This document shows positions 4,513 through 61,809 of a stretch of DNA of 64,000 bases, in pieces; position 1 is the first letter of the stretch; the number at the start of each line of letters is the position of its first letter. The notes beneath the pieces were generated by a model. It ran no database searches. It saw nothing but the letters and a program-made list of their open reading frames with translations, and was not told the origin of the DNA. Source of the DNA: an uncultured Gammaproteobacteria bacterium (GTDB lineage: Bacteria > Patescibacteriota > Patescibacteriia > Magasanikbacterales > GCA-002688135); the NCBI GenBank assembly GCA_964536205.1, contig CAZHVT010000004.1, positions 17,960 through 81,959 on the forward strand. The letters are read 5' to 3'. A program made the translations under genes and the position numbers.

Positions 4513-4836
4513 ATGGAATGGCAGAGAATTATAGACCTAGTGAAAAAAACAGGGGAGCGATGTGTCGTAATCGATCCAGATCATGATGAACCTGTGGTCG
4601 TTATGCCGTTATCGGATTATGAATTTTTAGCAGATCGTGATGAAGAAAACGAATTTGATTTTGGACTAGATGACATGCCCAGTGACATCCCATTTGAGCC
4701 AGAAGCAGATTGGATCCCAGATTTTGCACAAGAAGAAGAACCTGTTTTGGAAGTAATTGAAGAACATATTCATGAAGAAACAGAGCCACTTGCTACAGAA
4801 GAATCATGGTATATCGAACCAATTGAGGGCGAATAA
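4513..4836 (+). CDS. hypothetical small acidic protein
   Basis: 107-aa ORF 16 nt after fusA, extremely D/E-rich in its C-terminal half. No recognised domain. Confidence 0.45.
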   Translation: MEWQRIIDLVKKTGERCVVIDPDHDEPVVVMPLSDYEFLADRDEENEFDFGLDDMPSDIPFEPEADWIPDFAQEEEPVLEVIEEHIHEETEPLATEESWYIEPIEGE

Positions 4837-4915: not shown

Positions 4916-4990
4916 TGCGACGTCATTTATCCACTAGAAACCAATTTCGTGGGATGACGTTAAATTTAAACTAAAATAAGATAAATATAT

Positions 4991-6181
4991 ATGGCAGAGC
5001 AATTCGACCGATCAAAGACACACGTCAACGTCGGTACAATCGGTCACGTTGACCACGGTAAAACCACAACAACTGCTGCACTTTTAGCAGTATTACGTTC
5101 TGGAGGAAAAACAGCACAAGACAAATCAATGGCTGAAATTGACGCAGCTCCAGAAGAGCGCGAACGTGGAATTACTATCAACACAGCTCACGTTGAATAT
5201 GAGACAGATGGACGTCATTACGCTCATATCGACTGTCCAGGTCACGCTGACTACATCAAAAACATGATTACAGGTGCTGCTCAAATGGACGGCGCAATTT
5301 TGGTAGTTTCAGCAACGGATGGTCCAATGCCACAAACACGTGAGCACATTTTGCTTGCTCGACAAGTTGGTGTGCCACATATCGTTGTATTTTTGAACAA
5401 AGTAGACCAAGTTGATGATTCAGAATTGCTCGATCTCGTAGAAGAAGAAATTCGTGATTTGTTGAAGAAATACGAATTCCCTGGAGACGAAACTCCTATC
5501 ATCCGAGGATCAGCTTTAAAAGCTCTTGAAAATCCAGAAGATGAAGCTGCAACAAAACCAATTCATGATTTGCTCGCAGCACTTGATTCATACATTCCAG
5601 ATCCAGTTCGTGACACAGACAAGGATTTCTTGATGCCTGTTGAAGATATCTTCTCAATTGAAGGTCGTGGAACAGTTGCAACAGGAAGAATCGAACGTGG
5701 AACAGTCAACATTAACGATGAAGTAGAAATTGTTGGATTCGGAGATGTGCAAAAAACAGTTATCACGGGAATCGAAATGTTTAACAAACAACTCGATAAG
5801 GGAATGGCTGGTGACAATGCTGGATTGCTCATGCGTGGAACTAAGAAAGATGAAATCGAACGTGGAATGGTTTTGGCAAAGGCTGGAACAGTTACTCCAC
5901 ACACAGAATTCGATGTTGAAATCTATGCTCTTACAAAAGAAGAGGGTGGACGACACAAACCATTCATGACTGGATACAAACCACAGTTCTACATCCGAAC
6001 AACTGACGTGACTGGAGAAATCAAGTTGAAAGAAGGTACAGAAATGGTTATGCCTGGGGATACATTCCAAGGTGCAGTAACATTGATTTCACCAATCGCA
6101 TTGGAAGAAAAGCAAAAATTCAGCATCCGTGAAGGTGGAAAAACAGTTGGTGCTGGTATCGTATTGAAGATTAATAAATAA
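4991..6181 (+). CDS. tuf: elongation factor Tu
   Basis: 396 aa with [17 protein letters not shown] and NKVD motifs. Confidence 0.97.
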
Positions 6182-6562: not shown

Positions 6563-6745
6563 GATATCGCTACACGATATTTCATCACCCGACAGGGTGA
6601 TCTAATAATTAACAATAAGATGGGCGCCGGATCTCAGCAGATACAGTCTTCTGAGATCCGGAACTCATCCGGAAACTGATCCAAGATAAAGGTATAAGAT
6701 CCAACAGAACCTTCTTAATAAAATAATTGTTTGTAGATACAAATT

Positions 6746-6828
6746 CGTTTTGGCTGCAAAGCGCTCAAAGCTCCTCGACGATACTTCGGTATCGCCTCAT
6801 CGCTTATTCACGCTTTTCGCCGAAAACG
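6746..6828 (+). ncRNA. candidate structured RNA element, copy A, in the rpsJ-rplC spacer
   Basis: About 85-nt hairpin. Outer stem CGTTTTGGCTGCAAAGCG / CGCTTTTCGCCGAAAACG encloses the core CTCAAAGCTCCTCGACGATAC-TTCG-GTATCGCCTCATCGCTTATTCACG. Homologous to 14161-14249. Confidence 0.4.
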
Positions 6829-6987
6829 ATATTCATATCTACTAAACACTATTTTATCAAAAAGATTCATGGAAAACATACCCACATCACGGAATCAGAG
6901 GAGTATAAAGAAGATACATGCGGATTCCCGAATGGAATTCGTACACAATTCGACATATTAAGGCATGCATAGCATGTCATGTTGAGT

Positions 6988-7024
6988 GGTATCCTTTATA
7001 TTCATTAGAGATACCTCTTTTTTT
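6988..7024 (+). terminator. terminator-like hairpin plus T7 run abutting the rplC start codon; candidate attenuator
   Basis: GGTATC-ctttatattcatta-GATACC-TCTTTTTTT, followed directly by ATG at 7025. Confidence 0.4.
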
Positions 7025-7843
7025 ATGAAATGTATCATTGGAAGAAAATTGGAAATGACTCGAATTTTTGACGAGCAGGGGACAGCGACTCCCGTGACTG
7101 TTATTGCTGCACCAAAACAAGTGGTTACGCAGGTTCGTGAACGTGCAATTCAAGTGGGGTGTGAATCTGTAAAAAAGAACGTCAAAAAAGCACAACAAGG
7201 TCATTTGAAAGGATTGCCAATGATGAAAGTCATGCGCGATTTCAAAATTACCGACGATCAATTATTTGAGCGTGGTGATTCTTGGGATGCTGGCGTATTT
7301 GAAAAAGGGGATAAGGTAACCGTAACAGGTCATGCAAAAGGACGTGGATTTCAAGGTGTGGTGAAACGATGGGGATTCCATGGTTCACCAGCATCTCACG
7401 GACACAAAGATCAGTTGCGTATGCCTGGTTCAATTGCATCACGAACACAAGGTCCTGTGGCAAAAGGAAAGAAGATGGGTGGTCACATGGGAACAAATCG
7501 TGTGAGTGTTCATAATATTGCAGTCGTAGATATCAATCCTGAAGCTGGATTATTGTACTTGAAGGGAGCAATTCCTGGAGCACGCGGTTCAGTGGTATTG
7601 GTTAAAGGATTGGGTGAAATGGTTGTCGAGAAAACGAAAAAACAAGAAAGCGAAAAAACAGAAGAAACACCAGCAGAACCAAAAGCTGAGGTTGTTGAGG
7701 AAGTAAAAGAAGCGGTTGTAGAAGAGTCAAAAGCTGAAGAGAAAGTAGAATCATCTGAAGAGAAAAAACCAGAAGCAGTTGAAGAAAAACAAGAAGTTGC
7801 AGAAGAACCAAAAGCCGAGGAGGCGGCAGAAGAGACTAAATAA
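7025..7843 (+). CDS. rplC: 50S ribosomal protein L3 with about 75-aa E/K/A/V-rich C-terminal extension
   Basis: Begins MKCIIGRKLEMTRIFDEQG and contains the L3 core. Low-complexity tail EKTKKQESEKTEE...AEETK. The track ORF starts at 6986 but the internal Met matches the L3 N-terminus. Confidence 0.9.
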   Translation: MKCIIGRKLEMTRIFDEQGTATPVTVIAAPKQVVTQVRERAIQVGCESVKKNVKKAQQGHLKGLPMMKVMRDFKITDDQLFERGDSWDAGVFEKGDKVTVTGHAKGRGFQGVVKRWGFHGSPASHGHKDQLRMPGSIASRTQGPVAKGKKMGGHMGTNRVSVHNIAVVDINPEAGLLYLKGAIPGARGSVVLVKGLGEMVVEKTKKQESEKTEETPAEPKAEVVEEVKEAVVEESKAEEKVESSEEKKPEAVEEKQEVAEEPKAEEAAEETK

Positions 7844-7881
7844 AATCATAGAACGTAGAACATAGAACGTACAACATTAAT

Positions 7882-8515: not shown

Positions 8516-9025
8516 ATGTCATTCTTAGGAAAATGGTTTAAAAAGGATAAGCAAGAACGTCTGGATAAACAGACAGATGTTGATGTTGATGCAGAACAAA
8601 AAATCGAAAAATCGAAAAAACCAGAAATCGATAGAACTGAGATAAAATCTGAAAAGAAAAAGGAAGATGCAAAAAAAGCAGGTACTAAGAAAGATGAGGA
8701 AGAAAAAGTAGATGCGCCAATGATGACACTGAAAACGCCAGACTACATGTCGAATATCATTAAGCGATTGCATGTAACAGAAAAGGCTGCAGATGCTGAA
8801 TCACAATCAGTTTACACATTTGTAGTAGACATGAAGGCAACAAAGAATGAAATTGCTAAAGAGATTAAACGTACATATAACGTGACACCTGAAAAAATTC
8901 GTGTCATGAATATGCGTGGGAAACGAGTACGATGGGGTCGAAATCGTGGGCAGCGTTCAGGTTGGAGAAAAGCTATGGTTGCTTTGAAAAAGGGTGAAAA
9001 GATTAATCTTCACGAAGGAACTTAA
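8516..9025 (+). CDS. rplW: 50S ribosomal protein L23 with about 68-aa K/E-rich N-terminal extension; alternative start at 8720
   Basis: C-terminal 100 aa ([23 protein letters not shown]...) are L23. Upstream part is low-complexity KE-rich. Confidence 0.9.
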
Positions 9026-9870: not shown

Positions 9871-9883
9871 ACAAAGCGATTAG

Positions 9884-9941
9884 CGTCTAGCGTTTAGCGT
9901 TTAGAAAATTTCTAATCGCTAAACGCTGTACGCTATACGCT
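9884..9941. repeat. word-built imperfect palindrome, family 1 (AGCGTTTAGCG words), copy a
   Basis: AGCGATTAGCGTCTAGCGTTTAGCGTTTAGAAA / TTTCTAATCGCTAAACGCTGTACGCTATACGCT. Lies between rplB and rpsS. Confidence 0.7.
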
Positions 9942-10237: not shown

Positions 10238-10705
10238 ATGGATATTAAAGCACACGCAAAATTTGTTCGAATCTCACCACGCAAAGTTCGCTTGGTAACA
10301 GGTTTAGTGAAAGGCATGACAGTGCCGCATGCGTTGGTGCAATTAAAAATGACAACAAAACGATCAGCTCCAGTAGTCAAAAAGTTGATCGAATCAGCAA
10401 TGGCAAATGCTCGCCATAATTTCAAGGTAGACCCTGAAGCGCTTGTGATTTCAGAAGCGCTGGTGAACCAAGGGCCGACCATGAAAAGATGGCGACCGCG
10501 TGCCATGGGGCGTGCAGCGAAAATTCGCAAACGCACATCACATATCAGCATCACACTTTCAGATATGAAGGGAGATGCAAAACCAGTTGAAAAAACTGAA
10601 GCGGTAAAGGAAGAAAAACCAAAAGTCGAAGCAAAAAAGGATGCAGCAGAAGCTCCAAAGAAACCAGAAAAGAAGCAGGAAGAGGCAAAGGCCGCAAAAA
10701 AATAA
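10238..10705 (+). CDS. rplV: 50S ribosomal protein L22 with K/E/A-rich C-terminal extension
   Basis: N-terminal 110 aa match L22. The tail is EAVKEEKPKVEAKKDAAEAPKKPEKKQEEAKAAKK. Confidence 0.93.
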   Translation: MDIKAHAKFVRISPRKVRLVTGLVKGMTVPHALVQLKMTTKRSAPVVKKLIESAMANARHNFKVDPEALVISEALVNQGPTMKRWRPRAMGRAAKIRKRTSHISITLSDMKGDAKPVEKTEAVKEEKPKVEAKKDAAEAPKKPEKKQEEAKAAKK

Positions 10706-10735
10706 TTCTTGATTCATAATTCATAATTCCTACAC

Positions 10736-12657: not shown

Positions 12658-12727
12658 AGCGATTAGCGATTAGCGTCTAGCGTTTAGAAAAAATTCTAAT
12701 CGCTAGACGCTGTACGCTAAACGCTAC
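12658..12727. repeat. word-built imperfect palindrome, family 1, copy b
   Basis: AGCGATTAGCGATTAGCGTCTAGCGTTTAGAAAAAATTCTAATCGCTAGACGCTGTACGCTAAACGCT, nearly identical to copy a. Lies between rplN and rplX. Confidence 0.7.
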
Positions 12728-14120: not shown

Positions 14121-14160
14121 GGAGGATCATTCAAAATAAGTACTGATTGAATATATGACA

Positions 14161-14249
14161 TCCACTTCTGCTAAAAAGGGTTCAAAGCTCGTCAACGATG
14201 CGTCCGGCATCGCTTCCTCGCTTGTTCACCCTTTTTATCTAGAAGTGGA
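14161..14249 (+). ncRNA. candidate structured RNA element, copy B, in the rpsH-rplF spacer
   Basis: Outer stem TCCACTTCTGCTAAAAAGGG / CCCTTTTTATCTAGAAGTGGA enclosing the core TTCAAAGCTCGTCAACGATGC-GTCCG-GCATCGCTTCCTCGCTTGTTCAC. About 80% identical to the copy A core. Confidence 0.4.
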
Positions 14250-14288
14250 GGCCATCTATCCTAATCAGTATTATTCCGAATAATCCAT

Positions 14289-16190: not shown

Positions 16191-16306
16191 AAGATGCGTA
16201 AATCGTAAATCGTAAAGCGTAATGAGGGAAAAGGTATCGCTGCACGCGATCTATTAATATGTCGCCCTTGGCGACTCCGCTACCCGCATTACGAGTTACT
16301 AATAGT

Positions 16307-28265: not shown

Positions 28266-28292
28266 TAAAAAACGGCGTAAGCCGTTTTTTTT
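28266..28292. terminator. bidirectional rho-independent terminator
   Basis: AAAAAACGGC-gtaa-GCCGTTTTTTTT between convergent genes. Confidence 0.6.
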
Positions 28293-28321
28293 GTAGAACG
28301 TATGGCGTACATCGTACAACA

Positions 28322-28786
28322 TTAAATAATCACCTTAACTAAGATCGCCAACAAAAACGCCTGCATCACAAAGCCATGTTTCAAAGACATGTCTTTTTTT
28401 CTGTCAACAAAATAATTATGAAACCAGAAATGCACACGATGAAATGCTTCCAGCCACGGATGTTTATATAACTCACACAATCCAACCAACAAATCGGGGA
28501 GTACAGAACCAACTAATCCCCACGCAACAATAGTAGCATTTACATTTGGAACATAAGCAAAAACCCAAGCGACGAGCATAACAGCAGCAAGTGCATCAAA
28601 ACTTACCTTAGCAAGGGCCTGTTTCATCTTCTTGCCACTTTTATATTCCTTATACAAATGAGCATCGCCATGAGGAATCATGTCGATCAAAAGATGCGAA
28701 ATAAAGCCCAAAACAAAGGCCCAGAAAGCCGTAGGGCTATTTTGAGCTACAACTGCTCCAACTGCGACATGAGTGGCGATTAGCAT
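28322..28786 (-). CDS. membrane-bound metal-dependent hydrolase-like protein (YdjM/DUF457-like)
   Basis: 154 aa with TM segments and HLLIDMIPHGDAH. Confidence 0.45.
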   Translation of the reverse strand: MLIATHVAVGAVVAQNSPTAFWAFVLGFISHLLIDMIPHGDAHLYKEYKSGKKMKQALAKVSFDALAAVMLVAWVFAYVPNVNATIVAWGLVGSVLPDLLVGLCELYKHPWLEAFHRVHFWFHNYFVDRKKDMSLKHGFVMQAFLLAILVKVII

Positions 28787-28961
28787 AAAAGACTAATTTT
28801 ATTGGAATATAGTATAGCAGATTTCCTACAAAAAGTCATTTGTGGATTATGAACGCTAAAAAAGCACATTTTGTTGCATATATTATTACAAAATTAGTAT
28901 CAAATATAATACTAAATTTAGCAAAATAACCAAAAAAAGAAAAGAAAGGGTAAGACTACCA

Positions 28962-28990
28962 TTGACAAAATAACAAAAACATGATAGTAT
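28962..28990 (+). promoter_or_regulatory. strong sigma70-type promoter reading into the GC-rich island
   Basis: TTGACA, 17 nt, TAGTAT, about 60 nt upstream of the first island ORF. Confidence 0.5.
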
Positions 28991-29049
28991 ATGCGCGTAT
29001 TACATGAAGTAGTACGAGAACATTACAAGACGTAGGTTTTGGAGATGAC

Positions 29050-29265
29050 ATGCGGCGAATGTTGCGAAAAATAAAGCGCGTTATCCAGCACTGGCTGGAC
29101 GAGCAACGTGAGGCAATTTTCTTTTTCCGATACCTGTGGGTACGGACGAAAGTGGATTGCAGAATGGGTCTGATCGAGGAGTTTCTCTTCGACCCAAGCG
29201 CGTTGAAACAGCGCTACTTCGAAGAACGAAAGTTCGAGCAATCGCTGGCAGGTCGCTGGCGTTAG
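29050..29265 (+). CDS. hypothetical protein (island gene 1)
   Basis: 71 aa with a GGAG RBS. First ORF after the composition jump. Confidence 0.35.
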   Translation: MRRMLRKIKRVIQHWLDEQREAIFFFRYLWVRTKVDCRMGLIEEFLFDPSALKQRYFEERKFEQSLAGRWR

Positions 29266-29316
29266 CTTTCATATTGAGCCTGTTCCCGGGCTAAAAGAAA
29301 GGGGAGTGGAGCGAGC

Positions 29317-29628
29317 ATGAGTAAGAATTCCGTAGTCGTAGGTGATGGCATCACAGTGACGCGCGCGCAGTTGAAGCGCGCGCAGAAGCAGTATGCCAGA
29401 CGCAAAGGTGGCTTGCCGGGTTTCTGGCAGACAGCACTGGACCTCATGGGTCCGGAGCCGGAGCGGGTCAAGAAGACTCGTTCTGCCAAGCCGCGTCGGA
29501 AGCCGGTTGATACTGGTTTCTCGGAGGGTTACCTCGCTCAGCACAAGGCCGAGATCGGCCTGTCGAGTAAGGATCGGCGCCGCGAGCGTCGGGCCGCATC
29601 GAAGCGGTCTCGTCATCGTGACGAATAA
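29317..29628 (+). CDS. hypothetical highly basic protein (island gene 2)
   Basis: 103 aa. RBS GGGGAGTGGAG. K/R-rich C-terminal half (KKTRSAKPRRKP...RRRERRAASKRSRHRDE). Confidence 0.45.
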   Translation: MSKNSVVVGDGITVTRAQLKRAQKQYARRKGGLPGFWQTALDLMGPEPERVKKTRSAKPRRKPVDTGFSEGYLAQHKAEIGLSSKDRRRERRAASKRSRHRDE

Positions 29629-29800
29629 TCCTCGGCTTCGGCCAACCCCGAATCTACAAACTCTGGACTGTTGTGAAACAGACCACATAACCCGCGAGCA
29701 AGACCAAGGTCAAGTTCGCGGATCTAACTCGGTTGCTCAACAAAGTGTTGAGAGACCGTGAGGATCATTAACCCCATCCCTGGGGCAAAAGAATAAGGGC

Positions 29801-29869
29801 ATGGAGATGCAAATGTTGACGTTTGGCATTATCCAGCTGGCCGTTTTGGTCGGCGCCGTCATCCTGTAA
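29801..29869 (+). CDS. candidate 22-aa hydrophobic peptide (MEMQMLTFGIIQLAVLVGAVIL)
   Basis: Follows leader copy L1 (29757 CGTGAGGAT...AAAAGAATAAGGGC). Followed by hairpin 29893-29922. Confidence 0.3.
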   Translation: MEMQMLTFGIIQLAVLVGAVIL

Positions 29870-30002
29870 GGGTGGCTGGCGGGGGTGTCGCGGTTTACGA
29901 ACCTAGCGACACCTCTCCAACTTGAAAGCTTAATCATTCGATTCAGCTTTCGTGAGGAGACACACTCAAAGACCTTTGAAAAACACATAGTCAGGAGAGG
30001 TA

Positions 30003-30257
30003 ATGAACCCGGAATTGATGAATTTGTTGGTCGTACTGACCATGTGCTGGTTCTGCCTCGGCGCGATTGCTCACATGGTGGGTGGTCAAAAGTGGGCGAA
30101 CAAAGTCTGGAGATGGCCGTTCAAGATGATCGGAAAAGCCATCCGTTGGGTGTTGGTCCAGATTCGAGCTTTCATTCGTGAGGCTCTGGTCGGACTCTGG
30201 AATGCACTGCGAGGACGCAGAGGTAACCAAAACAACAACCGCGGCAACAACCCATGA
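30003..30257 (+). CDS. hypothetical 84-aa membrane protein: one TM helix, then an amphipathic basic helix and an RG/N-rich tail
   Basis: RBS AGGAGAGG. Leader CGTGAGGAG at 29951. Paired hairpins downstream at 30283-30355. Confidence 0.45.
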   Translation: MNPELMNLLVVLTMCWFCLGAIAHMVGGQKWANKVWRWPFKMIGKAIRWVLVQIRAFIREALVGLWNALRGRRGNQNNNRGNNP

Positions 30258-30383
30258 CTCAACCCTAACCCGCGAGCAGCATATGCGTCGCGGCAAGCCC
30301 TGTACCCAACGTGGTACAGGGATCCAAATCGATTTCGCAGTCCTGAATTGCGAAGTCACGAGGATTCATTCACAGGAGGAGAG

Positions 30384-30572
30384 ATGGAGAGTTTTCTGGG
30401 CAATGTCTGGGCGCTAGTCTGCCTTTGGGCTGGTCTGTGCATCTTCTATGCCATGATCAGCGCAGTCGTGATGTTCAAATACTCGGCGTGGGACATGTTC
30501 TTGCTGCCATTCAAGGCGATCATCATGCTGTGCAAAGGTCTCGGGAAACTCGTTCCCAGGACGTTCACCTAA
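30384..30572 (+). CDS. hypothetical 62-aa two-TM peptide
   Basis: RBS AGGAGGAGAG sits directly before ATG 30384. The upstream in-frame Met in the track lacks an RBS. Confidence 0.45.
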   Translation: MESFLGNVWALVCLWAGLCIFYAMISAVVMFKYSAWDMFLLPFKAIIMLCKGLGKLVPRTFT

Positions 30573-30617
30573 GAAGGGTGAGATCAAGAGTCAGGTGAAA
30601 ACACAATAAAAGGAGAA

Positions 30618-30683
30618 ATGATGGGAATCGAACTCATTCTGGGTCAGGCGCTTGTCTGCATCATGTACGCAGCTTTCCGCTAG
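30618..30683 (+). CDS. candidate 21-aa hydrophobic peptide (MMGIELILGQALVCIMYAAFR)
   Basis: RBS AAAAGGAGAA. Followed immediately by paired-hairpin module T1. Confidence 0.3.
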   Translation: MMGIELILGQALVCIMYAAFR

Positions 30684-30697
30684 GAGAGGTGTGTATC

Positions 30698-30750
30698 CGA
30701 GGATCTACGGATCCTCACAACGCAGCCGCGAACCAACATGGTTCGCGGCT
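30698..30750 (+). repeat. paired-hairpin module T1 (GAGGATC-tacg-GATCCTC, then CCGCGAACC-aacat-GGTTCGCGG)
   Basis: Two adjacent perfect stems. About 85% identical to T2 at 30966-31014. Confidence 0.6.
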
Positions 30751-30846
30751 CCAACTCGATCTCTGAGCACAGTATTCGTTCAGACTCGTGAGGAGATCTA
30801 CTGGTTACACCTAACCCCGGGTGGAAAGAAATGGGGAGGAGAGAGA

Positions 30847-30948
30847 ATGGACTGGCCAGGGATTCATCGAGACATGACGATTACAGCGATTTCGCTGGTA
30901 ACAATCATCTTTCTGTTCTGGGCATGCAGCGGCTCAAGCCTCTGCTAG
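30847..30948 (+). CDS. candidate 33-aa hydrophobic peptide (MDWPGIHRDMTITAISLVTIIFLFWACSGSSLC)
   Basis: Leader L2 (30787 CGTGAGGAG...ACCCCGGGTGGAAAGAAATGGGG), RBS GGAGGAGAGAG, followed by module T2. Confidence 0.35.
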   Translation: MDWPGIHRDMTITAISLVTIIFLFWACSGSSLC

Positions 30949-30965
30949 AAATTAACAACACATAT

Positions 30966-31014
30966 CGAGGGTCTACGGATCCTCGCGCAGTCCCGAACCA
31001 ACGCGGTTCGGGGC
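30966..31014 (+). repeat. paired-hairpin module T2
   Basis: GAGGGTC-tacg-GATCCTC, then CCCGAACC-aacgc-GGTTCGGGG. Confidence 0.6.
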
Positions 31015-31109
31015 TCCAAATCGGAAAGATTAATGAAAATTAAGCATCCGTGAGGAGTTACAAATAAAAGCCCTGACCCGGGGTAAAAGAAATGGGTTTT
31101 AGGAGGCAC

Positions 31110-31490
31110 ATGATCTTTTGGATCAGTCGTCACGAGCTGTCCCCGGCGCAGACCAAGGCTATCTTGGATCTGCACGGAGACGTTGAGGTAAAGCGACAGG
31201 AAGTCGTTTTCGATGAGGTGGGTGGTTTGAAATCGCTCATCGAGTCGGTAGATGAAGGAGACTTCGTCTACGCCGTGGCCGGTGCGCCGCACTACTTGGC
31301 AGCCGCTTTGAGTGGTTGTGAGTTCGGTGTTTTTCTCAATCACCCGGGTCGGCGTGCCAATGGCACGTTCGGTCTTCATTGCGTATTTCACGTGGTCGGT
31401 GGAGAGCTGGTAAAGGTCTGGGAAAACCCAGATCCGAACAGCGATGAGGGAGAGCGTCTCGATGTCACAGTCGAGCGTCCCATTCTTTAA
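31110..31490 (+). CDS. hypothetical 126-aa soluble protein (last island gene)
   Basis: Leader L3 (31049 CGTGAGGAG...GACCCGGGGTAAAAGAAATGGG), RBS AGGAGG. The ATG inside AAAGAAATGGG (31092) is in frame and is an alternative start. Confidence 0.45.
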   Translation: MIFWISRHELSPAQTKAILDLHGDVEVKRQEVVFDEVGGLKSLIESVDEGDFVYAVAGAPHYLAAALSGCEFGVFLNHPGRRANGTFGLHCVFHVVGGELVKVWENPDPNSDEGERLDVTVERPIL

Positions 31491-31568
31491 ACCAGAGGGC
31501 GTGCTATGGCACGTCACTCCAACTAAAATTTCAATGTATTGAAGTTTTTGAGGAGAAATGGGAAGAGC

Positions 31569-31596: not shown

Positions 31597-31616
31597 TTTG
31601 CAGAAAAGCTTCTGAC

Positions 31617-31690
31617 TACCAGGGGGGAGAATTGAACTCCCGACCTCAGGCTTATGAGTCCTGCGCTCTAACCTTCTGAGCTACCCTGGT
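31617..31690 (-). tRNA. tRNA with anticodon CAU (elongator Met or Ile2-type)
   Basis: Minus-strand cloverleaf ACCAGGG-TA-GCTCAGAAGGTTAGAGC-G-CAGGA-CTCATAA-GCCTG-AGGTC-GGGAG-TTCAATT-CTCCC-CCCTGGT-A. CCA not encoded. Confidence 0.75.
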
Positions 31691-31746
31691 AGTCAATAGC
31701 TTTATGATTGCTAACGGCGATAGTATAAGAGAAATTGAAATGATCG

Positions 31747-36956: not shown

Positions 36957-37124
36957 CCACACAACTATCCTCAAAAACAAATCTGATATAACATTATTTT
37001 ACACTAAATTAACCAAAAATAATACCACAAAAACAGCCTTTTGTCAACCCCTACGAACATCTTGTTGCTCTACTAAAATAAGTGGTATTTATGGCATTTT
37101 ATGGGTAAGTGAGAGGTATCGAGA

Positions 37125-37210
37125 AAGCGAAGAATCTAAAAAACAAGAAATCAAAAAAGCAGCAGAGCCACTTTCGATTTCTAGCTTTCTAGTTTTCTGG
37201 TTTTTTCGAA
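37125..37210. repeat. word-built imperfect palindrome (AAATC/GATTT, CTAG words) immediately downstream of relA
   Basis: CGAAGAATCTAAAAAACAAGAAATCAAAAAAGC...GATTTCTAGCTTTCTAGTTTTCTGGTTTTTTCG. Confidence 0.55.
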
Positions 37211-38683: not shown

Positions 38684-38689
38684 TGTGAG

Positions 38690-38798
38690 GAATTATGAAT
38701 CAAGAATTATGAATAATGGACTAAGAGGGGGTTGGGCGACGCCCAGTAATTATAAATCGTCGCTACGCGACACATTCCCATACCTCATTATTCATACT
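38690..38798. repeat. composite element C1: outer ATTATGAAT-word stem enclosing the conserved core ATAAATCGTCGCTACGCGAC
   Basis: GAATTATGAATCAAGAATTATGAATAATGG...core...CCATACCTCATTATTCATACTTCATGATTC. Between the topA 3' end and the relA start. Confidence 0.6.
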
Positions 38799-40997: not shown

Positions 40998-41003
40998 AAT
41001 TTT

Positions 41004-41090
41004 TCGTAACGAGTAAAGCGTAATGCGTAAAGAGGGATTTCGCCTTCGGCGATCGCTTTACGCTTTGCGCATTACGCTTTACGAACTACC
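41004..41090. repeat. word-built palindrome, family 2 (CGTAAAGCG words around GGGATTTCGCCTTCGGCGATCGC), copy a
   Basis: Right arm overlaps the last 5 codons of the rimK-like gene. Near-reverse-complement of copy b at 44250-44313. Confidence 0.65.
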
Positions 41091-41947: not shown

Positions 41948-41949
41948 AA

Positions 41950-42060
41950 AGCTCGCGACTTAAGAACTTAAGAACCAAAGAACTGAAGAACTCACGCACT
42001 GAAATTGGCAGCTACAAATGAGAGATTGCCGAGTTCATAAGTTCTTACGTTCATCAGTTC
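41950..42060. repeat. word-built imperfect palindrome (AAGAACT/AGTTCAT words) between the rimK-like gene and dprA
   Basis: ACTTAAGAACTTAAGAACCAAAGAACTGAAGAACTCACG...CGAGTTCATAAGTTCTTACGTTCATCAGTTCATAAGT. Confidence 0.55.
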
Positions 42061-43174
42061 ATAAGTGGAATGAGATACGAACGTATCTCATTCCCGATAT
42101 CTGTTTGACGATACGTTTTGTTTCAAGCATTGTCAAGAGTGTCATCACGCGCGCTGCCGGTAAATCCGCCTTCACAATACAATCATCAATATGCAACGCT
42201 TCATGAGATAAAAGACTCAAAATAAGAGCTTCTTCTGGAGATGTTGGTTCATAATCCACGCGAGTTTGCTCATCACTTTCAATCTGAAAAACATTCAAAA
42301 TATCTTCCGAAGATGTCACACAATGCGCACCCATGGCAATTAATGTATTACAACCCTTGGAGGTTTGAGAAAATACAGATCCAGGCGATGCAAACACCTC
42401 ACGATTTTGCTCCAAGGCAACTCGTGCTGTAATCAACGAACCAGATTTTTCTGCAGCCTCAACAACAAATGTCCCGCGCGACAATCCTGAAATAATACGA
42501 TTACGAAGTGGAAAGTGATGTTTGAGTGGGGGAGTGTGTGGGGGGAATTCAGAAATCACTGCTCCGCCAGACTCAATAATTCTCTTTGCTAATTGCGCAT
42601 GTTGTCGAGGATATACATGTGCATCGTCATTTCCCGAACCCAAAACCGCAACTGTATATCCATCAGATTGTAAAGTCTGTTCATGAGCGCGACCATCCAC
42701 ACCCAAAGCCAATCCAGAAATAATAGAACATCCAGACTTCACCAAAGATGGCATAATAGTATCAATAATTTGCTCGCCATAATGCGACATTTTCCGAGAG
42801 CCGACCACTGCAATCGGCATGTCTATACTTGGATTCAAAAACCCACGAACAAACAACACAGCTGGCGGATCAAAAATGTGTGAAAGCAATTCAGGAAAAT
42901 CATCATCAAAAAAACAGACCAACCGAATGTCCTGTTTTGAAAGTAAGCTAGAAAATTTGGAAATATCAAAACGTTTACGATGTTCAATAAACTCATTCAC
43001 CAACCCATCTGTAATGCGTGCATTTTGAAGTTCGGAATGTGACGCTCCCCAAGCACGCTCCATCGAACCAAAATGGTTATGCAGTTGTCGTAATCGAACA
43101 CTGCCGAATTTCGGAAAAGATGTGCATGCTATCCAGTAGTCTTGTTCGGTATGAGGGCTTGACATAAGCTGCAA
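42059..43174 (-). CDS. dprA: DNA processing protein DprA (Smf)
   Basis: Rossmann-like DprA core VVGSRKMSHYG...GLALGVDGRAHE...GSLITAR. Confidence 0.85.
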   Translation of the reverse strand: MQLMSSPHTEQDYWIACTSFPKFGSVRLRQLHNHFGSMERAWGASHSELQNARITDGLVNEFIEHRKRFDISKFSSLLSKQDIRLVCFFDDDFPELLSHIFDPPAVLFVRGFLNPSIDMPIAVVGSRKMSHYGEQIIDTIMPSLVKSGCSIISGLALGVDGRAHEQTLQSDGYTVAVLGSGNDDAHVYPRQHAQLAKRIIESGGAVISEFPPHTPPLKHHFPLRNRIISGLSRGTFVVEAAEKSGSLITARVALEQNREVFASPGSVFSQTSKGCNTLIAMGAHCVTSSEDILNVFQIESDEQTRVDYEPTSPEEALILSLLSHEALHIDDCIVKADLPAARVMTLLTMLETKRIVKQISGMRYVRISFHL

Positions 43175-44249: not shown

Positions 44250-44313
44250 GTAATGCGTAAAGCGATCGCCAAAGGCGAAATCCCGCATTACGCTTTACGA
44301 ATTACGCATTACT
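44250..44313. repeat. word-built palindrome, family 2, copy b
   Basis: GTAATGCGTAAAGCGATCGCCAAAGGCGAAATCCCGCATTACGCTTTACGAATTACGCATTAC. Confidence 0.65.
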
Positions 44314-45709: not shown

Positions 45710-45722
45710 GTTGTTATGGGAT

Positions 45723-45822
45723 TCGTAAAGCGTAAAGCGTAAAATGTGTCGCGCAGTGACGATCTATAAATCGTCGCTTCAGCGACCAATTTCCCGAGTT
45801 ACGAGTTACGCTTTACGAGTTA
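45723..45822. repeat. composite element C2: outer CGTAAAGCG-word stem enclosing the core ATAAATCGTCGCTTCAGCGAC
   Basis: TCGTAAAGCGTAAAGCGTAAAA...core...TTACGAGTTACGCTTTACGAGTTA. Between the LCP gene 3' end and the der start. Core homologous to C1. Confidence 0.6.
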
Positions 45823-47229
45823 CTAATTTCCTAAATGTCTCTTGGCCCACTCATTTCCAATAATAATCACAATATCAGCATCATTGCCAACTGTAAATGC
45901 TGGAGCTTTCTGAACAATATCCGCTGGAACAAAAGGCGCAATACGAGATAATGCAGCATCAGACTTTTCATCAACAGTAACTTGATAAATTAATGTTTCA
46001 TCAAACGTACGATCTGGTGTATTTCCAATATGTTTCACATTAATTCCTTCATCTTCAAGCAACTGACGCATTGCCGCGGCCATTCCAGCCTCCCACGTTC
46101 CATTTAAAATTGTCACACGAGATTCACGAAATTTCGAAACATCAACTGCATATCGACGTGGTGGTGGCGGAGGATCAACATCAAACATATTATTCACAAA
46201 ATGCGCAACTTCTGAATAATCACCAGCTTTAGGCAACAAGAAATATCCATAATCCGTGTTCAGTTCTTGTAAGAGTGAGTCTGCGCCAATCGTTAAAACG
46301 TGCTGCACTACATCATCTGGATCAACATTTTTCCCTTTTTTCGCAAACTCCAAAATCTCAACTAAATTAAAATCTGTATCAACGTGTTTTTTCAACGTGT
46401 TAAAAAGTGAGGTAAGTTTTGAAGGATTGATGAGTGTTGTTGGTTTAAGAATTTTCGCGCGCAATGCAGTCAGAATTTTTTGTTGGCGATGAGCTCGCGC
46501 AAAATCAGAGCCCTCGCCATGACTACCATGACGCGAGCGCGCATACTCAAGTGCACGATTACCATCCATCAATTCCGTCCCAGCTTCAAATACAACGGTT
46601 TTATAACCGAAGTTATCTGTCGGAAACTGATCATCAATAAACGTTTGTTCAATCGTAACTGACAATCCACCCAGCGTATCCACAATATCCTCAAACGCTC
46701 CAAAATCCACACGAACATAATAATGCATTGGTTCATCCAAAACTGTACTAATCACTTTGCTCGCAAATGCACCGCCATCCCCAGGAAATTCTTCCTCTCC
46801 ATACGCATTTGCATGATTAATTTTTTTCACACCATATCCAGGAATCGCAACTGCCATATCGCGGGGAAGCGAAAGCATCGCAACTTTATTATCAGAAGGT
46901 CGATAGCTCGCAACAATAATTGTGTCAGATAATTGAGGGCCGTCATGCCCAGCTCCACCAACTCCCAGGAACAAGATATTAATACGATCCTCATTAAATC
47001 CATCCAGTAAACGATTTTCAGAAAAAACCAATCGCTTAATCCCACGCACAATCGAAGGCTTTTCACCTTCCGGTAGCGAACCTTCTGTAATCTGCATTAA
47101 AGCACTCACAATATTATATACCCAAAAAAGAGCTCCAATCACGAAAATCAAAAAAAATATACGTAGAACATTACGTATGCTGAACCGAGACTTCGGTCGC
47201 AGATCCATATCACTCTTATATTTGCGCAT
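45823..47229 (-). CDS. LytR-CpsA-Psr (LCP) family cell-envelope protein
   Basis: N-terminal TM, then LCP core (ILFLGVGGAGHDGPQLSDTIIVASY...) and a C-terminal LytR_C-like region. Confidence 0.8.
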   Translation of the reverse strand: MRKYKSDMDLRPKSRFSIRNVLRIFFLIFVIGALFWVYNIVSALMQITEGSLPEGEKPSIVRGIKRLVFSENRLLDGFNEDRINILFLGVGGAGHDGPQLSDTIIVASYRPSDNKVAMLSLPRDMAVAIPGYGVKKINHANAYGEEEFPGDGGAFASKVISTVLDEPMHYYVRVDFGAFEDIVDTLGGLSVTIEQTFIDDQFPTDNFGYKTVVFEAGTELMDGNRALEYARSRHGSHGEGSDFARAHRQQKILTALRAKILKPTTLINPSKLTSLFNTLKKHVDTDFNLVEILEFAKKGKNVDPDDVVQHVLTIGADSLLQELNTDYGYFLLPKAGDYSEVAHFVNNMFDVDPPPPPRRYAVDVSKFRESRVTILNGTWEAGMAAAMRQLLEDEGINVKHIGNTPDRTFDETLIYQVTVDEKSDAALSRIAPFVPADIVQKAPAFTVGNDADIVIIIGNEWAKRHLGN

Positions 47230-52989: not shown

Positions 52990-53062
52990 AGATGGGAATT
53001 ATGAATTATGAATAATGAATCATGGGGTTCTCATTTAAAGAAATCATCCATAATTCCTTATT
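52990..53062. repeat. word-built imperfect palindrome (ATTATGAAT words) between hup and ymdB
   Basis: GGGAATTATGAATTATGAATAATGAATCATGG...CATCCATAATTCCTTATTCGTGATTCATATTTC. Confidence 0.55.
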
Positions 53063-53068
53063 CGTGAT

Positions 53069-58021: not shown

Positions 58022-58057
58022 ATACCAGATACCAGATACTAAATACTAGATACTAAA
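58022..58057. repeat. tandem AGATAC(C/T) word repeats upstream of infB
   Basis: TATACCAGATACCAGATACTAAATACTAGATACTAAAAAA. Confidence 0.4.
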
Positions 58058-58060
58058 AAA

Positions 58061-60061
58061 ATGAACGTCACAGAACTCGCACGACGCCTCCGCGTCAACT
58101 CAAAAACACTCCTACAAACTCTCCCAGAGTTTGGTTTTGATATTGGAGCGCGCGCGATCAAAGTAGATGACAAAATCGCACAACAAATTCAAAGAGCATG
58201 GCCAAAAATTAAACGTGAGCTAGACAGACGAAAAGCAGAAGAAGAAAAAGAACGACGCCTGAAAGATATTGCAGCGCGCCGCGAAGAAGTGGGAACAGTG
58301 GAATTATCAGATGTGTTTACGGTTCGCGAATTTGCAGCAGCACTTAATTTACCTGTGACGACGTTAATGCAAGAATTGATGAAGAATGGAATTTTGGTAG
58401 CGATGAATGAACGAATCGATTTCGACACCGCACAAATCATCGCAGAAGATTTAGGATACGAAGTGATCAAAAAAAATGAAGGAGAAGCTGTCGTTGAAAC
58501 AACATCAGAAGAATCTGAACTAAAAGAAATGCTTGATGCAGATGCAAAAAACGCCACACCACGTCCAGCTGTTATTGTGGTGATGGGACATGTTGATCAT
58601 GGAAAAACGCGATTGCTCGATGCGATTCGCTCAACTAATGTGATCGATACAGAAGCCGGCGGAATCACACAGCATATCGGGGCATATCAAATAGAAAAAC
58701 AAGGAAAGAAAGTGACGTTTATCGATACGCCAGGGCACGAAGCCTTTACTGTCATGCGATCTCGTGGTGCGCGCGTCGCAGACATCGCTATTTTAGTAGT
58801 AGCCGCAGACGACGGAGTCAAGCCACAAACAAAAGAAGCAATCAAAATTATTCATGCCGCAAAACTGCCATACGTCGTCGCACTCAACAAAATGGATAAA
58901 GCAGAAGCAAATCCCGATAAGGTTAAAAAGGAACTATCAGAACATAACGTATTGGTAGAAGAATGGGGAGGCGACGTGCCAATTGTAGAAATCTCTGCAA
59001 AAGAAGGAACGAATATTGATAAAATTTTGGATGTGATTTTGTTAGTCGCGGATGTAAACGCGGATAAAATCACGGCAAATGCAGATCGTGGCGCTATCGG
59101 AACGGTAATTGAATCTCGTGTTGATAAAGGACAGGGTCCGGTTGCGACAGTTCTCGTACAAGCAGGAACATTGAAGAAAAAAGATCCGCTTAATGTAAAC
59201 GGCCGAAATTATGGTCGCGTGCGAGCTTTGAAGAATTATGTAGGAGAGGATTTAAAAGAAGCACTTCCAGGAACACCTGTCAGAATTTTAGGATTTCAAA
59301 GCGCTCCGGAAGTGGGAGACATTTTAGATGTTGATGCTAAAGACGCGGTGAAGCTGAAGAAAACGAAAACATTAAAATCACAAGCAGTTGCATCAGTACT
59401 TACACAAACAACAGAGGACGAAGACGAAGAAGGAAAGGGAAAGAAGATTCTACCAATTGTTGTGAAGGCTGACACACTGGGATCACTTGAAGCTGTCCTT
59501 AACTCACTTGAGAAAATTCAACATGACGAAGTCGGAATTAAAATCGCTTCACAAGGTTTGGGAAATATCACGGATGCAGAAATTCTCAAAGCCGAAGGAA
59601 CAAACACAAGATTTTATGCATTTAATGTGGTGCCAACAGGAACAGCTGCGCATGTCGCTCGTGAAAAGAAATTACCGATTTATGAAACAGCAATCATTTA
59701 CGATTTACTATCAAACGTAACAGCGGAACTTGAAAAATTACTTGAACCAGAAATTATTGAAACACAACACGGAAACGCAACGGTGCTAGAAATTTTCCGA
59801 CAAGATAAAAAAGGACAAATTATTGGGTGTCGTTTGAACGAAGGAAAATTCCGACCGGAAATTAGTATTCGCATTAAACGTGCAGGTGAATTGATGGGAG
59901 AAGGAAAAATCACCATGCTCAAATCTGGAAAATCAGAAACAAAAGAAGTTCCGGGAGGTTCAGAATTTGGAATGAATTTGAAATCGCGTACAACCGTACT
60001 TGTCGATGATGTTTTAGAAGGGTATACTGTTGAGCGAAAGGAGAAAAAACTTAATCTATAG
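58061..60061 (+). CDS. infB: translation initiation factor IF-2
   Basis: G domain ([26 protein letters not shown]) plus C-terminal beta-barrels. 666 aa. Confidence 0.95.
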
Positions 60062-60147
60062 CGATTAGCGTCTAGCGTTTAGCGATTAGTAATTCACTAG
60101 CGAGCTCAGCGAGAAACTAAAAGCTAAACGCTAAAAGCTAAACGCTA
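60061..60147. repeat. word-built palindrome, family 1, copy c
   Basis: GCGATTAGCGTCTAGCGTTTAGCGATTAG...AGCGAGAAACTAAAAGCTAAACGCTAAAAGCTAAACGCT. Confidence 0.65.
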
Positions 60148-60463: not shown

Positions 60464-60582
60464 AAATCGAGAAATCGAAAAAACGAGAAAACCAGAAATC
60501 GAAAAATCGAAAAATCGAAAAAAATCCCGCAAGGGATTTTTAGCTTTCTCGTTTTCTCGTTTTCTCGATTTCTGGTTTCCTC
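60464..60582. repeat. very long word-built imperfect palindrome (AATCGAAA / TTTCTCG words) with GCAA tetraloop centre; convergent-gene terminator
   Basis: Arms of about 55 nt around AAATCCC-gcaa-GGGATTT, between trxA (+) and the antiporter gene (-). Confidence 0.65.
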
Positions 60583-60586
60583 GAAA

Positions 60587-61579: not shown

Positions 61580-61618
61580 CTTGATTAAACATGCGCGTCT
61601 CGATACTATTGTGTACTT

Positions 61619-61662
61619 AAGCGAGAAACTAATCGCTAATCGCTAATCGCTAAACGCTCGCT
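61619..61662. repeat. partial copy of the family 1 word element
   Basis: AGCGAGAAACTAATCGCTAATCGCTAATCGCTAAACGCTCGCT. Shares AGCGAGAAACTA with copy c. Confidence 0.5.
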
Positions 61663-61809
61663 ATGACACACATACAAAAACGTCGCCTACTGATTGCTGT
61701 TCTGGCAACAGTCGGGTCACTTCTCGCAATCACGATTTATGTGGACGGCGGCATATCACAAAAAGATATTGTACAAGCAGATCAACAAGAAGTTATACAA
61801 AACCCATAG
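61663..61809 (+). CDS. candidate 48-aa single-TM protein
   Basis: ORF MTHIQKRRLLIAVLATVGSLLAITIYVDGG..., absent from the track (under 60 aa). Ends 1 nt before leuS. Confidence 0.25.
   Translation: MTHIQKRRLLIAVLATVGSLLAITIYVDGGISQKDIVQADQQEVIQNP

Follow-up and report, generated by a model that had tools for sequence, protein, structure and literature searches.

Intergenic palindromes built from many heptameric and octameric tandem words in a Patescibacteria genome segment

Results

The locus and its family 1 elements

The window analysed here, a stretch of 64,000 nucleotides (nt) of contig CAZHVT010000004.1 (assembly GCA_964536205.1), is a piece of a compact genome of the Patescibacteria, or candidate phyla radiation (CPR), with 41% G+C. 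It carries the str, S10 and spc ribosomal protein (r-protein) operons, without an L30 gene, together with secY, adk, map, parAB, relA, topA, dprA, engA, the RNase Y gene, infB, trxA and leuS. Identity in L2 is only 64% to the nearest GTDB species representatives, which bear the labels Falkowbacteria, Uhrbacteria or 'Patescibacteria group', and a comparison of initiation factor 2 (IF-2) points to relatives among the Magasanikbacteria, at about 54%. A first-pass annotation, made from the sequence alone, had proposed that gaps between the genes of this window hold a dispersed family of long imperfect palindromes whose arms are tandem repeats of a short word, and that other words are used to the same design at other sites. 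Such a dispersed, multi-vocabulary system exists. We found in addition that its elements follow an orientation rule, abut stop and start codons, occur as single arms in 5' untranslated regions (UTRs), and are rapidly gained, lost and re-worded among relatives. We consider them a many-worded version of an already described class of repeats. All four copies proposed for the first family (family 1) are present, and are given here with their folding energy (dG) or folding z-score (z):

9875..9941, + strand: family 1 palindrome in the L2/S19 gap (dG -39, z -8.7)
12658..12727, + strand: family 1 palindrome in the L14/L24 gap (z -8.0), 85% identical to the copy at 9875
60059..60147, + strand: family 1 palindrome in the infB/trxA gap, with a longer centre containing AGCGAGAAACTAA (z -3.3)
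61619..61658, + strand: family 1 single arm, (CTAATCG)x4.3 after AGCGAGAAAC (array proper 61629-61658), with no predicted fold

The element at 9875, whose start had been placed at 9884, a few bases inside the 5' arm, consists of a 5' arm (AGCGNNT)x4.3 (9875-9904), a loop AAAATTT and a 3' arm (CTANNCG)x4.3 (9912-9941); its stem begins 4 nt past the stop codon and finishes 8 nt short of the ATG. The copy at 12658 has a compensated TCT:AGA unit in place of the TTT:AAA of the 9875 copy. The single arm at 61619 lies downstream of a promoter-like site (TTGATT-17-TACTAT) and 4 nt 5' of the ATG of a 48-aa open reading frame (ORF, 61663-61809), also called by public pipelines, which abuts leuS. The flanking genes had been named correctly (L2/S19, L14/L24, infB/trxA and Na/Ca exchanger/leuS), with this ORF intervening in the last gap. 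The formula (TAG N4)4-AAAAATTT-(CTA N4)4 fits family 1 as well as the corresponding elements of the closest relative, and only N4 differs between them.

Number, size and reality of the arrays

Tandem Repeats Finder detected 21 non-overlapping arrays with a period of 7-8 nt and at least three copies in the window (15 with period 7 and 6 with period 8), compared with a mean of 0.33 in 30 dinucleotide-preserving shuffles. The positional bias towards gene ends is strong: 18 of the 21 are intergenic, and intergenic DNA makes up 12.5% of the window (binomial P = 5e-14); the exceptions include in-frame arrays within the L23 and leuS genes. The pattern (TAG N4)x3-TAG matched seven times in the window and not once in 100 shuffles. 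Array lengths were tightly clustered at 26-35 nt (4.0-4.9 copies), longer ones being found only in the arms around the trxA terminator. When the window was taken together with ten similar loci, about four copies was the commonest count (65 of 121 arrays), six or more copies occurred in only 4 of the 121, and the median length was 30 nt. The design is thus one of about four units of 7-8 nt per arm, each unit with a constant core of 3-5 nt plus variable positions, and at least seven unrelated words are used in this way within 64 kb.

Seven contigs, each the product of an independent assembly and together representing at least five samples of two projects, matched the window at 99.93-100% identity. 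None of them had an indel in any array, so that no unit-number polymorphism was seen, and the single-nucleotide polymorphisms that were located (contigs L001 and L002) all fall in coding DNA. Because the arrays are identical in these independent contigs, an assembly artefact is excluded, and the lack of indels rules out hypervariability of the arrays in this population. Nor do they look like contingency (phase-variation) loci: besides the constancy of the seven contigs, their neighbours are housekeeping genes.

At about ten sites of the window an array is paired with its inverted complement, giving hairpins of 17-46 bp, and eight of ten palindromes have co-directional flanking genes. Folding z-scores ranged from -8.7 to -1.6, with -8.7 at L2/S19, -8.0 at L14/L24 and -7.2, -6.0 and -3.3 at others, and modest values (-1.6 to -2.2) for the elements starting at 38684, 40998, 41948 and 52990. 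The long stems that had been claimed for the elements in general are therefore outstanding at about half of the paired sites; the remainder fold modestly, and for the single arm at 61610-61663 no fold was predicted.

Anatomy, orientation and relation to translation

The stem starts 0-6 nt past the upstream stop codon in 22 of 24 junctions, the arm sometimes overlapping that codon, and its predicted end leaves 3-26 nt unpaired before the ATG. The distance from array to ATG is bimodal, either -5 to 16 nt or 36-92 nt. On the sense strand, start-proximal arms contain 8.8% G and stop-proximal (distal) arms 9.4% C, and the 5' arm has more G than C in 19 of 24 element families (P = 0.007). Stop codons in all three frames were found in 21 of 32 distal arms read in sense and in 11 of 32 read as the reverse complement, compared with 3.9 in composition-matched shuffles. 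Orientation tracks transcription on both strands, as illustrated by the CATAATT family at 10702 (+) and at 38690 and 52996 (-), and an octamer family keeps the same rule in the window and in a relative. Single arms are found where the array follows a promoter rather than a gene (58022 and 61629), and composite elements have their arms around a short G+C hairpin with a T-rich tail. A test for selection on the sense RNA was negative: folding was slightly more favourable for the antisense strand, and the sense strand had no surplus of G.U pairs when these were set against A.C mismatches. For the variable dinucleotides, complementarity was 0.73 in register and 0.67 when shifted, which is not informative.

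Shine-Dalgarno motifs precede about 15% of the window genes by a loose test, starts share a conserved A/T-rich context that has T at -1, and gene junctions of only 1-5 nt (TAAT ATG) are frequent. This rarity of Shine-Dalgarno motifs and these minimal junctions imply initiation independent of Shine-Dalgarno pairing, with coupling of termination to reinitiation. Six of seven array-rich loci are Shine-Dalgarno-poor (Fisher P = 0.003), and many Shine-Dalgarno-poor Patescibacteria loci carry no arrays.

Gain, loss and word replacement among relatives

We compared the window with a graded series of L2 homologues in their genomic context, which comprised fragments of the relatives' genomes. Elements were found at shared junctions, and they were re-worded, gained or lost. 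In GCA_002688135.1 (here L085), with an L2 97% identical to that of the window and genes at 85-92% nucleotide identity, eleven palindromes of 63-90 nt with the word GTGAGTA/CTACYMA occupy eleven r-protein junctions from L4/L23 to S14/S8, all eleven in one orientation and 87-97% alike. At nine of these junctions the gap in the window is merely 1-5 nt. Several of the L085 elements supply the upstream stop codon and alter the last codons, namely those of L29, S17 and L5; when filled and empty junctions were compared, no target-site duplication was found, and spacers and C-terminal codons were replaced. Five junctions are filled in both genomes (L3/L4, L2/S19, L22/S3, L14/L24 and L15/SecY), with different words at four of the five. 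Copies at the same junction are only 54-58% identical between window and L085, far less than the copies within either genome (85% in the window, 87-97% in L085), and the matching positions belong to the loop and the TAG/CTA scaffold. In both species TAG and CTA recur unchanged every 7 nt, and the other four positions have changed.

In relatives with 86, 82, 77, 74 and 74% L2 identity, the L2/S19 junction is empty and 5-10 nt long, and one relative at 80% has there a palindrome with a third word, CTGAAAG. Compact junctions of 1-10 nt free of any element are found in relatives with 74-86% identical L2, and the elements are therefore dispensable. As for infB/trxA, the gap in a relative with an 85% identical IF-2 (L453) holds a palindrome with the word CCTGAAA, and the site of the window's 61619 arm is occupied by (GTGAGTG)n up to the contig end; in a relative at 75% identity, this gap is 3 nt long and a plain hairpin forms the trxA terminator. 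Octamer arms surround that terminator in the window and are missing from it in relatives. GTGAGT-type arrays were found in relatives at three of the four family 1 sites. Our prediction that the infB/trxA element of the relative would carry GTGAGTA failed, since CCTGAAA was found there, with (GTGAGTG)n at the site upstream of leuS. Together, these comparisons show that gain, loss and re-wording of the elements far outpace the divergence of the genes, that the copies within one genome evolve in concert, and that arms are added around pre-existing hairpins.

Two contigs deserve a separate mention. That of L453 terminates inside at least eight units of GTGAGTG (4961-5082), and arrays apparently break short-read assemblies of such genomes. 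A groundwater CPR contig (L149, 1065-1441, L5/S14) has nested palindromes, in which an outer word encloses TAGCG-type arms and these a further palindrome; the nesting suggests repeated accretion or insertion into loops.

Other elements of the window and neighbouring features

The remaining words of the first-pass annotation were likewise recovered: CATAATT/GAATTAT at 10702, 38690 and 52996, the octamer AAATCGAA at 60464/60545, the octamer AAGAACTT at 41958/42032, ATACNNN at 58022, and TAGAACG at 7847 with a weaker relative at 28290. The word CGTAAAG was present at 16197, 41005/41054 and 45724/45795, and its third site lies at 44284 and not at 44250 as had been given. These elements are the following:

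7847..7877, + strand: single arm (TAGAACR)x4 filling the L3/L4 gap
10702..10729, + strand: CATAATT single arm filling the L22/S3 gap, overlapping the stop codon and ending 6 nt before the ATG
16197..16222, + strand: CGTAAAG single arm, 6 nt past the L15 stop codon, followed by a small hairpin and then secY
28290..28321, no strand assigned: degenerate array, (GTANNNC)x4, flanked by a bidirectional terminator and by the stop codon of gene 28322-28786 on the minus strand
37124..37210, - strand: octamer (TTTCTAGN) palindrome with a terminator-like core, immediately following the relA stop codon
38684..38798, - strand: CATAATT composite in the topA/relA gap, start-proximal arm 38690-38718, stop-proximal arm about 38770-38798; core a GTCGC-GCGAC hairpin and then ATTTATAATT, terminator-like
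40998..41083, - strand: CGTAAAG palindrome in the rimK/topA gap, arms 41005-41032 and 41054-41083, with an inner GC hairpin
41948..42066, - strand: octamer (AAGAACTT / AGTTCTTA) palindrome in the dprA/rimK gap
44284..44312, - strand: CGTAAAG single arm covering the engA stop and the pth start across a 20-nt gap
45710..45823, - strand: CGTAAAG composite palindrome in the lytR/engA gap, arms 45724-45743 and 45795-45823 (z -6.0), its inner core related to that of the 38684 element
52990..53068, - strand: CATAATT element in the ymdB/HU gap, start-proximal arm 52996-53024
58022..58055, + strand: single arm (ATACNNN)x4.9 in the infB 5' UTR, ending 5 nt before the ATG, downstream of a TTGACC-17-TAAACT promoter conserved in two relatives
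60464..60583, no strand assigned: octamer arms (AAATCGAR)x7.4 and (TTTCTCGT)x4.9 (z -7.2) between the convergent trxA and Na/Ca exchanger genes, wrapping a bidirectional terminator core CCCGCAAGGG with A and T tracts

The octamer family of the 41948 element is also found at the S7/EF-G junction of L085.

Repeats were also seen within coding sequences. The L23 gene (8516-9025) has a K/E-rich N-terminal extension of about 70 aa with an in-frame octamer array (8599-8631), whose word is the AAATCGAA of the trxA terminator arms at 60464; in leuS, an in-frame (TGTCAAA)x4.6 array (62512-62543) encodes VKCQNPNVKCP in LeuRS; and the L3 protein ends in an E/K-rich extension of about 70 aa, encoded by tandem repeats of 16, 24 and 18 nt at the 3' end of its gene (7629-7808).

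The r-protein region also holds structured stretches of other kinds. An insert of about 165 nt in the S8/L6 junction (14121-14288) folds strongly (dG -61) and is unlike the heptad elements. Its core, AAAGCTCGTC..GATG..CTCGCTTGTTCAC, is shared with an insert in the L6/L18 junction of L085 (14563-14732), and in each genome the other of the two junctions is empty. The insert resembles either a small RNA gene or a further structured element that can move. The S10/L3 gap (6563-7024, 462 nt) contains a long near-perfect hairpin (CCGGATCTCAGCAG...CTGAGATCCGG) conserved in L085, while in more distant relatives the gap is 330-420 nt long and of different sequence; an ORF within it (6727-6972) had no Pfam match, and the gap may be a lineage-specific leader or regulatory RNA. 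Between fusA and tuf, a 107-aa ORF (4513-4836) is conserved in L085 and had no significant Pfam match, the weak best one being Phd/YefM-like at E = 0.002. Finally, an island of 46-50% G+C (28787-31517) with small ORFs free of Pfam matches, beside a tRNA-Met gene (31616-31691), may be an integrated foreign element.

Wider distribution

Eighty loci surrounding the L2 gene were fetched from species representatives, and 85 sequences were scanned. Dense arrays were present in a subset, namely two Falkowbacteria metagenome-assembled genomes (MAGs), a Buchananbacteria MAG, a Patescibacteria-like MAG and a MAG labelled Chloroflexia, and arrays were absent from 64 of the 85 sequences, Firmicutes included. 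In metagenome and viral collections, (TAGCGNN)x3 and the control word (TGACGNN)x3 gave at least 120 matches each, and heptad arrays of arbitrary words, inverted pairs included, are common in metagenomes and in viral contigs of any G+C. Since the control word matches too, the sharing of a word between distant organisms is uninformative, and we no longer regard family 1 as a conserved family that spreads horizontally. No RNA family was identified by Rfam searches run at the gathering threshold and again at E <= 1, with only sub-threshold matches to generic hairpins (miRNA precursors), and a BLAST search of a phage collection with the element yielded no match. We found no published account of such elements in Patescibacteria.

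Discussion

Origin and maintenance of the elements

Our best reading is that these elements belong to the intergenic heptameric arrays known from Xanthomonas, Nostoc and Beggiatoa (of the short tandemly repeated repetitive, STRR, or long simple sequence repeat, SSR, type), and that in the window genome they behave like a population of REP- or REPIN-like sequences (REP, repetitive extragenic palindromic). With this, the slippage origin and the REP-like nature suggested at first are both compatible. We believe, with about even confidence, that they are dynamic heptameric arrays at the DNA level, which grow around hairpins, are copied or homogenised among stop-start junctions and are filtered by translation. 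Arrays would arise through replication slippage, and the inverted partner arm would be made by intrastrand template switching at a neighbouring hairpin, by which the palindromes would grow outward from loops or terminators. Ectopic gene conversion or a trans-acting factor may then spread or homogenise the copies, and translation would select the survivors in a genome that is Shine-Dalgarno-less and tightly coupled. Under such a filter, an arm behind a gene would have to close all reading frames, an arm ahead of a gene would have to be G-poor and largely free of start codons, and an insertion in an operon would have to fold on itself, keeping stop and start about 10-30 nt apart for termination-reinitiation coupling. 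Any benefit of the hairpin to mRNA stability would be secondary.

Several observations weigh against this account. No mobilising enzyme, target-site duplication or terminal signature was found, and Pfam scans of 45 window proteins revealed no transposase, RAYT, HutP or Csp, which leaves the copying step hypothetical. If the DNA were highly prone to slippage, unit numbers would be expected to vary, yet they are constant in the seven contigs. Direct selection for a function would also fit the narrow four-unit length, as well as the occupation of the same five junctions in two species despite re-wording. Furthermore, the orientation statistics include family copies that are not independent, the gene calls of distant loci are crude ORF calls, and the placement of L453 in the L085 lineage is assumed.

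Direct selection could act on the RNA, and operon punctuation of this kind is a possible, though clearly less probable, explanation. The hairpin would shield the upstream cistron from 3'-5' exonucleases or mark a site for RNase III or RNase Y, the latter being encoded in the window, the G-poor heptads would form a landing or re-initiation platform independent of Shine-Dalgarno pairing, and a terminating ribosome would open the base of the stem and so link the two cistrons. The fixed orientation relative to transcription, the tight abutment on stop and start, the short unpaired stretch (6-26 nt) before the ATG, the near absence of Shine-Dalgarno motifs and their scarcity in six of seven array-rich loci would all be accounted for, as would the fixed four-unit size, the stability of the arrays in the population, the occupation of the same junctions in the window and L085 with different words, and the 58022 array in a 5' UTR behind a conserved promoter. 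However, relatives with 74-86% L2 identity do with junctions of 1-10 nt and no element, many Shine-Dalgarno-poor Patescibacteria loci lack arrays, neither wobble pairs nor folding energy show a sense-strand bias, several hairpins are barely better than shuffles, and the arrays at 16197 and 28290 are in neither of the expected positions. A related idea, which we put forward only tentatively, is that the four-unit periodicity of 7-8 nt is, whatever the word, itself a functional signal for intercistronic initiation or reinitiation, or for mRNA punctuation. Its reader might be the translation apparatus or a sequence-tolerant single-strand binder, and the inverted arm a switch opened by the terminating ribosome. 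If this were true, the repeats of Xanthomonas, Nostoc, Beggiatoa and the CPR would be one widespread, unrecognised class of translational control, and not junk or G-quadruplexes.

It is rather unlikely that the arrays are periodic binding sites with one 7-8 nt unit per protein subunit. At the RNA level a cold-shock-domain protein, ribosomal protein S1 or a HutP/TRAP-like ring would be candidates, and at the DNA level a ribbon-helix-helix protein of the omega/ParG/MetJ type. The operators of the latter consist of units of 7-8 bp, each with a core of 4 bp, arranged in tandem or inverted, and the (UAG N4)4 of family 1 has what we take to be the spacing of HutP sites. A constant core of 3-5 nt with a variable spacer, a unit number fixed at about four, and TAG/CTA kept at period 7 in two species while the other four positions changed are what such binding would leave, and binding of S1, Csp or CsrA has been proposed by MacGregor for the TAACTGA arrays (PMC4679880). 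Nevertheless, at least seven unrelated words in 64 kb, and their replacement between relatives with 97% identical L2, would require many co-evolving or sequence-blind binders; no candidate was found in the window by Pfam, the need to have stops in every frame accounts just as well for the conserved TAG, and operator-like DNA sites are expected at promoters and not between cistrons. A role as intrinsic terminators or attenuators evolved by slippage, suggested in the first-pass annotation, is improbable for the class as a whole. It suits only three or four composites that enclose a G+C hairpin and a T-rich tail (60464-60583, 37124-37210, 38684-38798 and possibly 45710-45823), and in these the cores are ancestral and the arms were added around them. 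A T tract is missing from family 1 and from most other copies, which are located within the S10 and spc operons and are passed over by a terminator scan that does call canonical G+C-rich terminators elsewhere in the window, and single arms cannot end transcription. That the whole pattern is an assembly or simulation artefact, or due to chance, is hardly credible in view of the seven identical independent contigs, the excess of arrays over the shuffles and the recurrence of the same architecture in many public genomes.

Three further candidates were discarded. Internal promoters (CATAAT-like boxes with leaderless mRNAs) do not agree with the spacing, and no promoter-like site was called at the arrays; DNA-uptake sequences do not agree with the many words in one genome; and TIGR- or CRISPR-like arrays do not agree with elements that are isolated single palindromes.

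Comparison with known systems

Among long simple repeats in bacteria, those with heptamer units are the most frequent, and for some 35 years no role has been established for them. The relatives of the window genome provide dated events of gain, loss and concerted re-wording inside essential r-protein operons, by which both the copying mechanism and the translational constraints become testable. The repeats also have practical consequences, as they break CPR metagenome assemblies and can alter protein C-termini, and their words occur in frame in the L23 extension and in LeuRS.

Like miniature inverted-repeat transposable elements, the palindromes are small and non-coding, vary in presence among close relatives and come in near-identical bursts (eleven in L085). 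They differ in that no target-site duplication was found and that their ends overlap and replace stop codons, with spacer and C-terminal codons being replaced; no parent insertion sequence was noticed in the fetched loci that were examined, although no systematic search was made. The REP, BIME and REPIN sequences of proteobacteria are short extragenic imperfect palindromes, often within operons, with many copies that evolve in concert; REP hairpins can stabilise the upstream mRNA, and REPINs are tied to a RAYT transposase gene. The elements described here are likewise short, extragenic, imperfectly palindromic and present in many similar copies per genome. In contrast, REP arms are not tandem repeats, REP families have neither multiple unrelated words under one architecture nor a rule of stop/start abutment, and none of the 45 window proteins scanned with Pfam is a RAYT.

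Closer parallels exist among tandem heptamers. Mrazek reportedly described heptamer-dominated 'long SSRs' in 2007, and Mazel is said to have described the STRR repeats of cyanobacteria in 1990. MacGregor (2015) described TAACTGA arrays in marine Beggiatoaceae, some cyanobacteria and Bacteroidetes, with 2-6 forward copies within a few nt upstream of start codons, r-protein operons included, where the forward orientation gives stops in all frames and the downstream genes mostly have no Shine-Dalgarno site (PMC4679880). Heptamers just 5' of starts, all-frame stops and Shine-Dalgarno-poor genes are common to both systems, and TAACTGA differs in being a single genome-wide word with one indirect repeat in 170 sets and no predicted hairpin (PMC4679880).

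The nearest relatives of all, in our reading, are the intergenic GGGAATC heptamers of Xanthomonas and the GGGGAYT heptamers of Nostoc reported by Rehm et al. (2015), of which 89-93% of arrays are intergenic (PMC4692102). They lie mostly between co-oriented ORFs, with 70-75 convergent pairs per genome capable of forming stem-loops, and obey a strand rule by which the G-rich strand follows or overlaps stop codons and its complement stands just before ORFs. These repeats are transcribed, vary in length and sequence between sister species, have no link to insertion sequences and no known function, and their bias towards four units was ascribed to G-quadruplex formation (PMC4692102). Period 7, a conserved core of 4-5 nt, a mode of four units, inverted pairs, the intergenic and co-oriented bias and the strand rule are all shared with the window. 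The design that the first-pass annotation called unusual therefore has published precedents, both in the four-unit heptamers, inverted pairs and equal strand rule of Xanthomonas and Nostoc (PMC4692102) and in the forward heptamers just 5' of starts in Shine-Dalgarno-poor Beggiatoaceae (PMC4679880). What sets the present elements apart is that at least seven unrelated words in 64 kb take the place of one G-tract word, that they lie inside r-protein operons and fill the whole gap from stop to start, and that their host is a Shine-Dalgarno-less member of the Patescibacteria. Only 3 of the 121 words of the window and the ten similar loci contain GGG or CCC, and quadruplexes therefore cannot generally explain the preference for four units. 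That the design known from other phyla is made here from many unrelated words that are not G-rich removes the explanation offered for Xanthomonas and points to a cause that is independent of the word.

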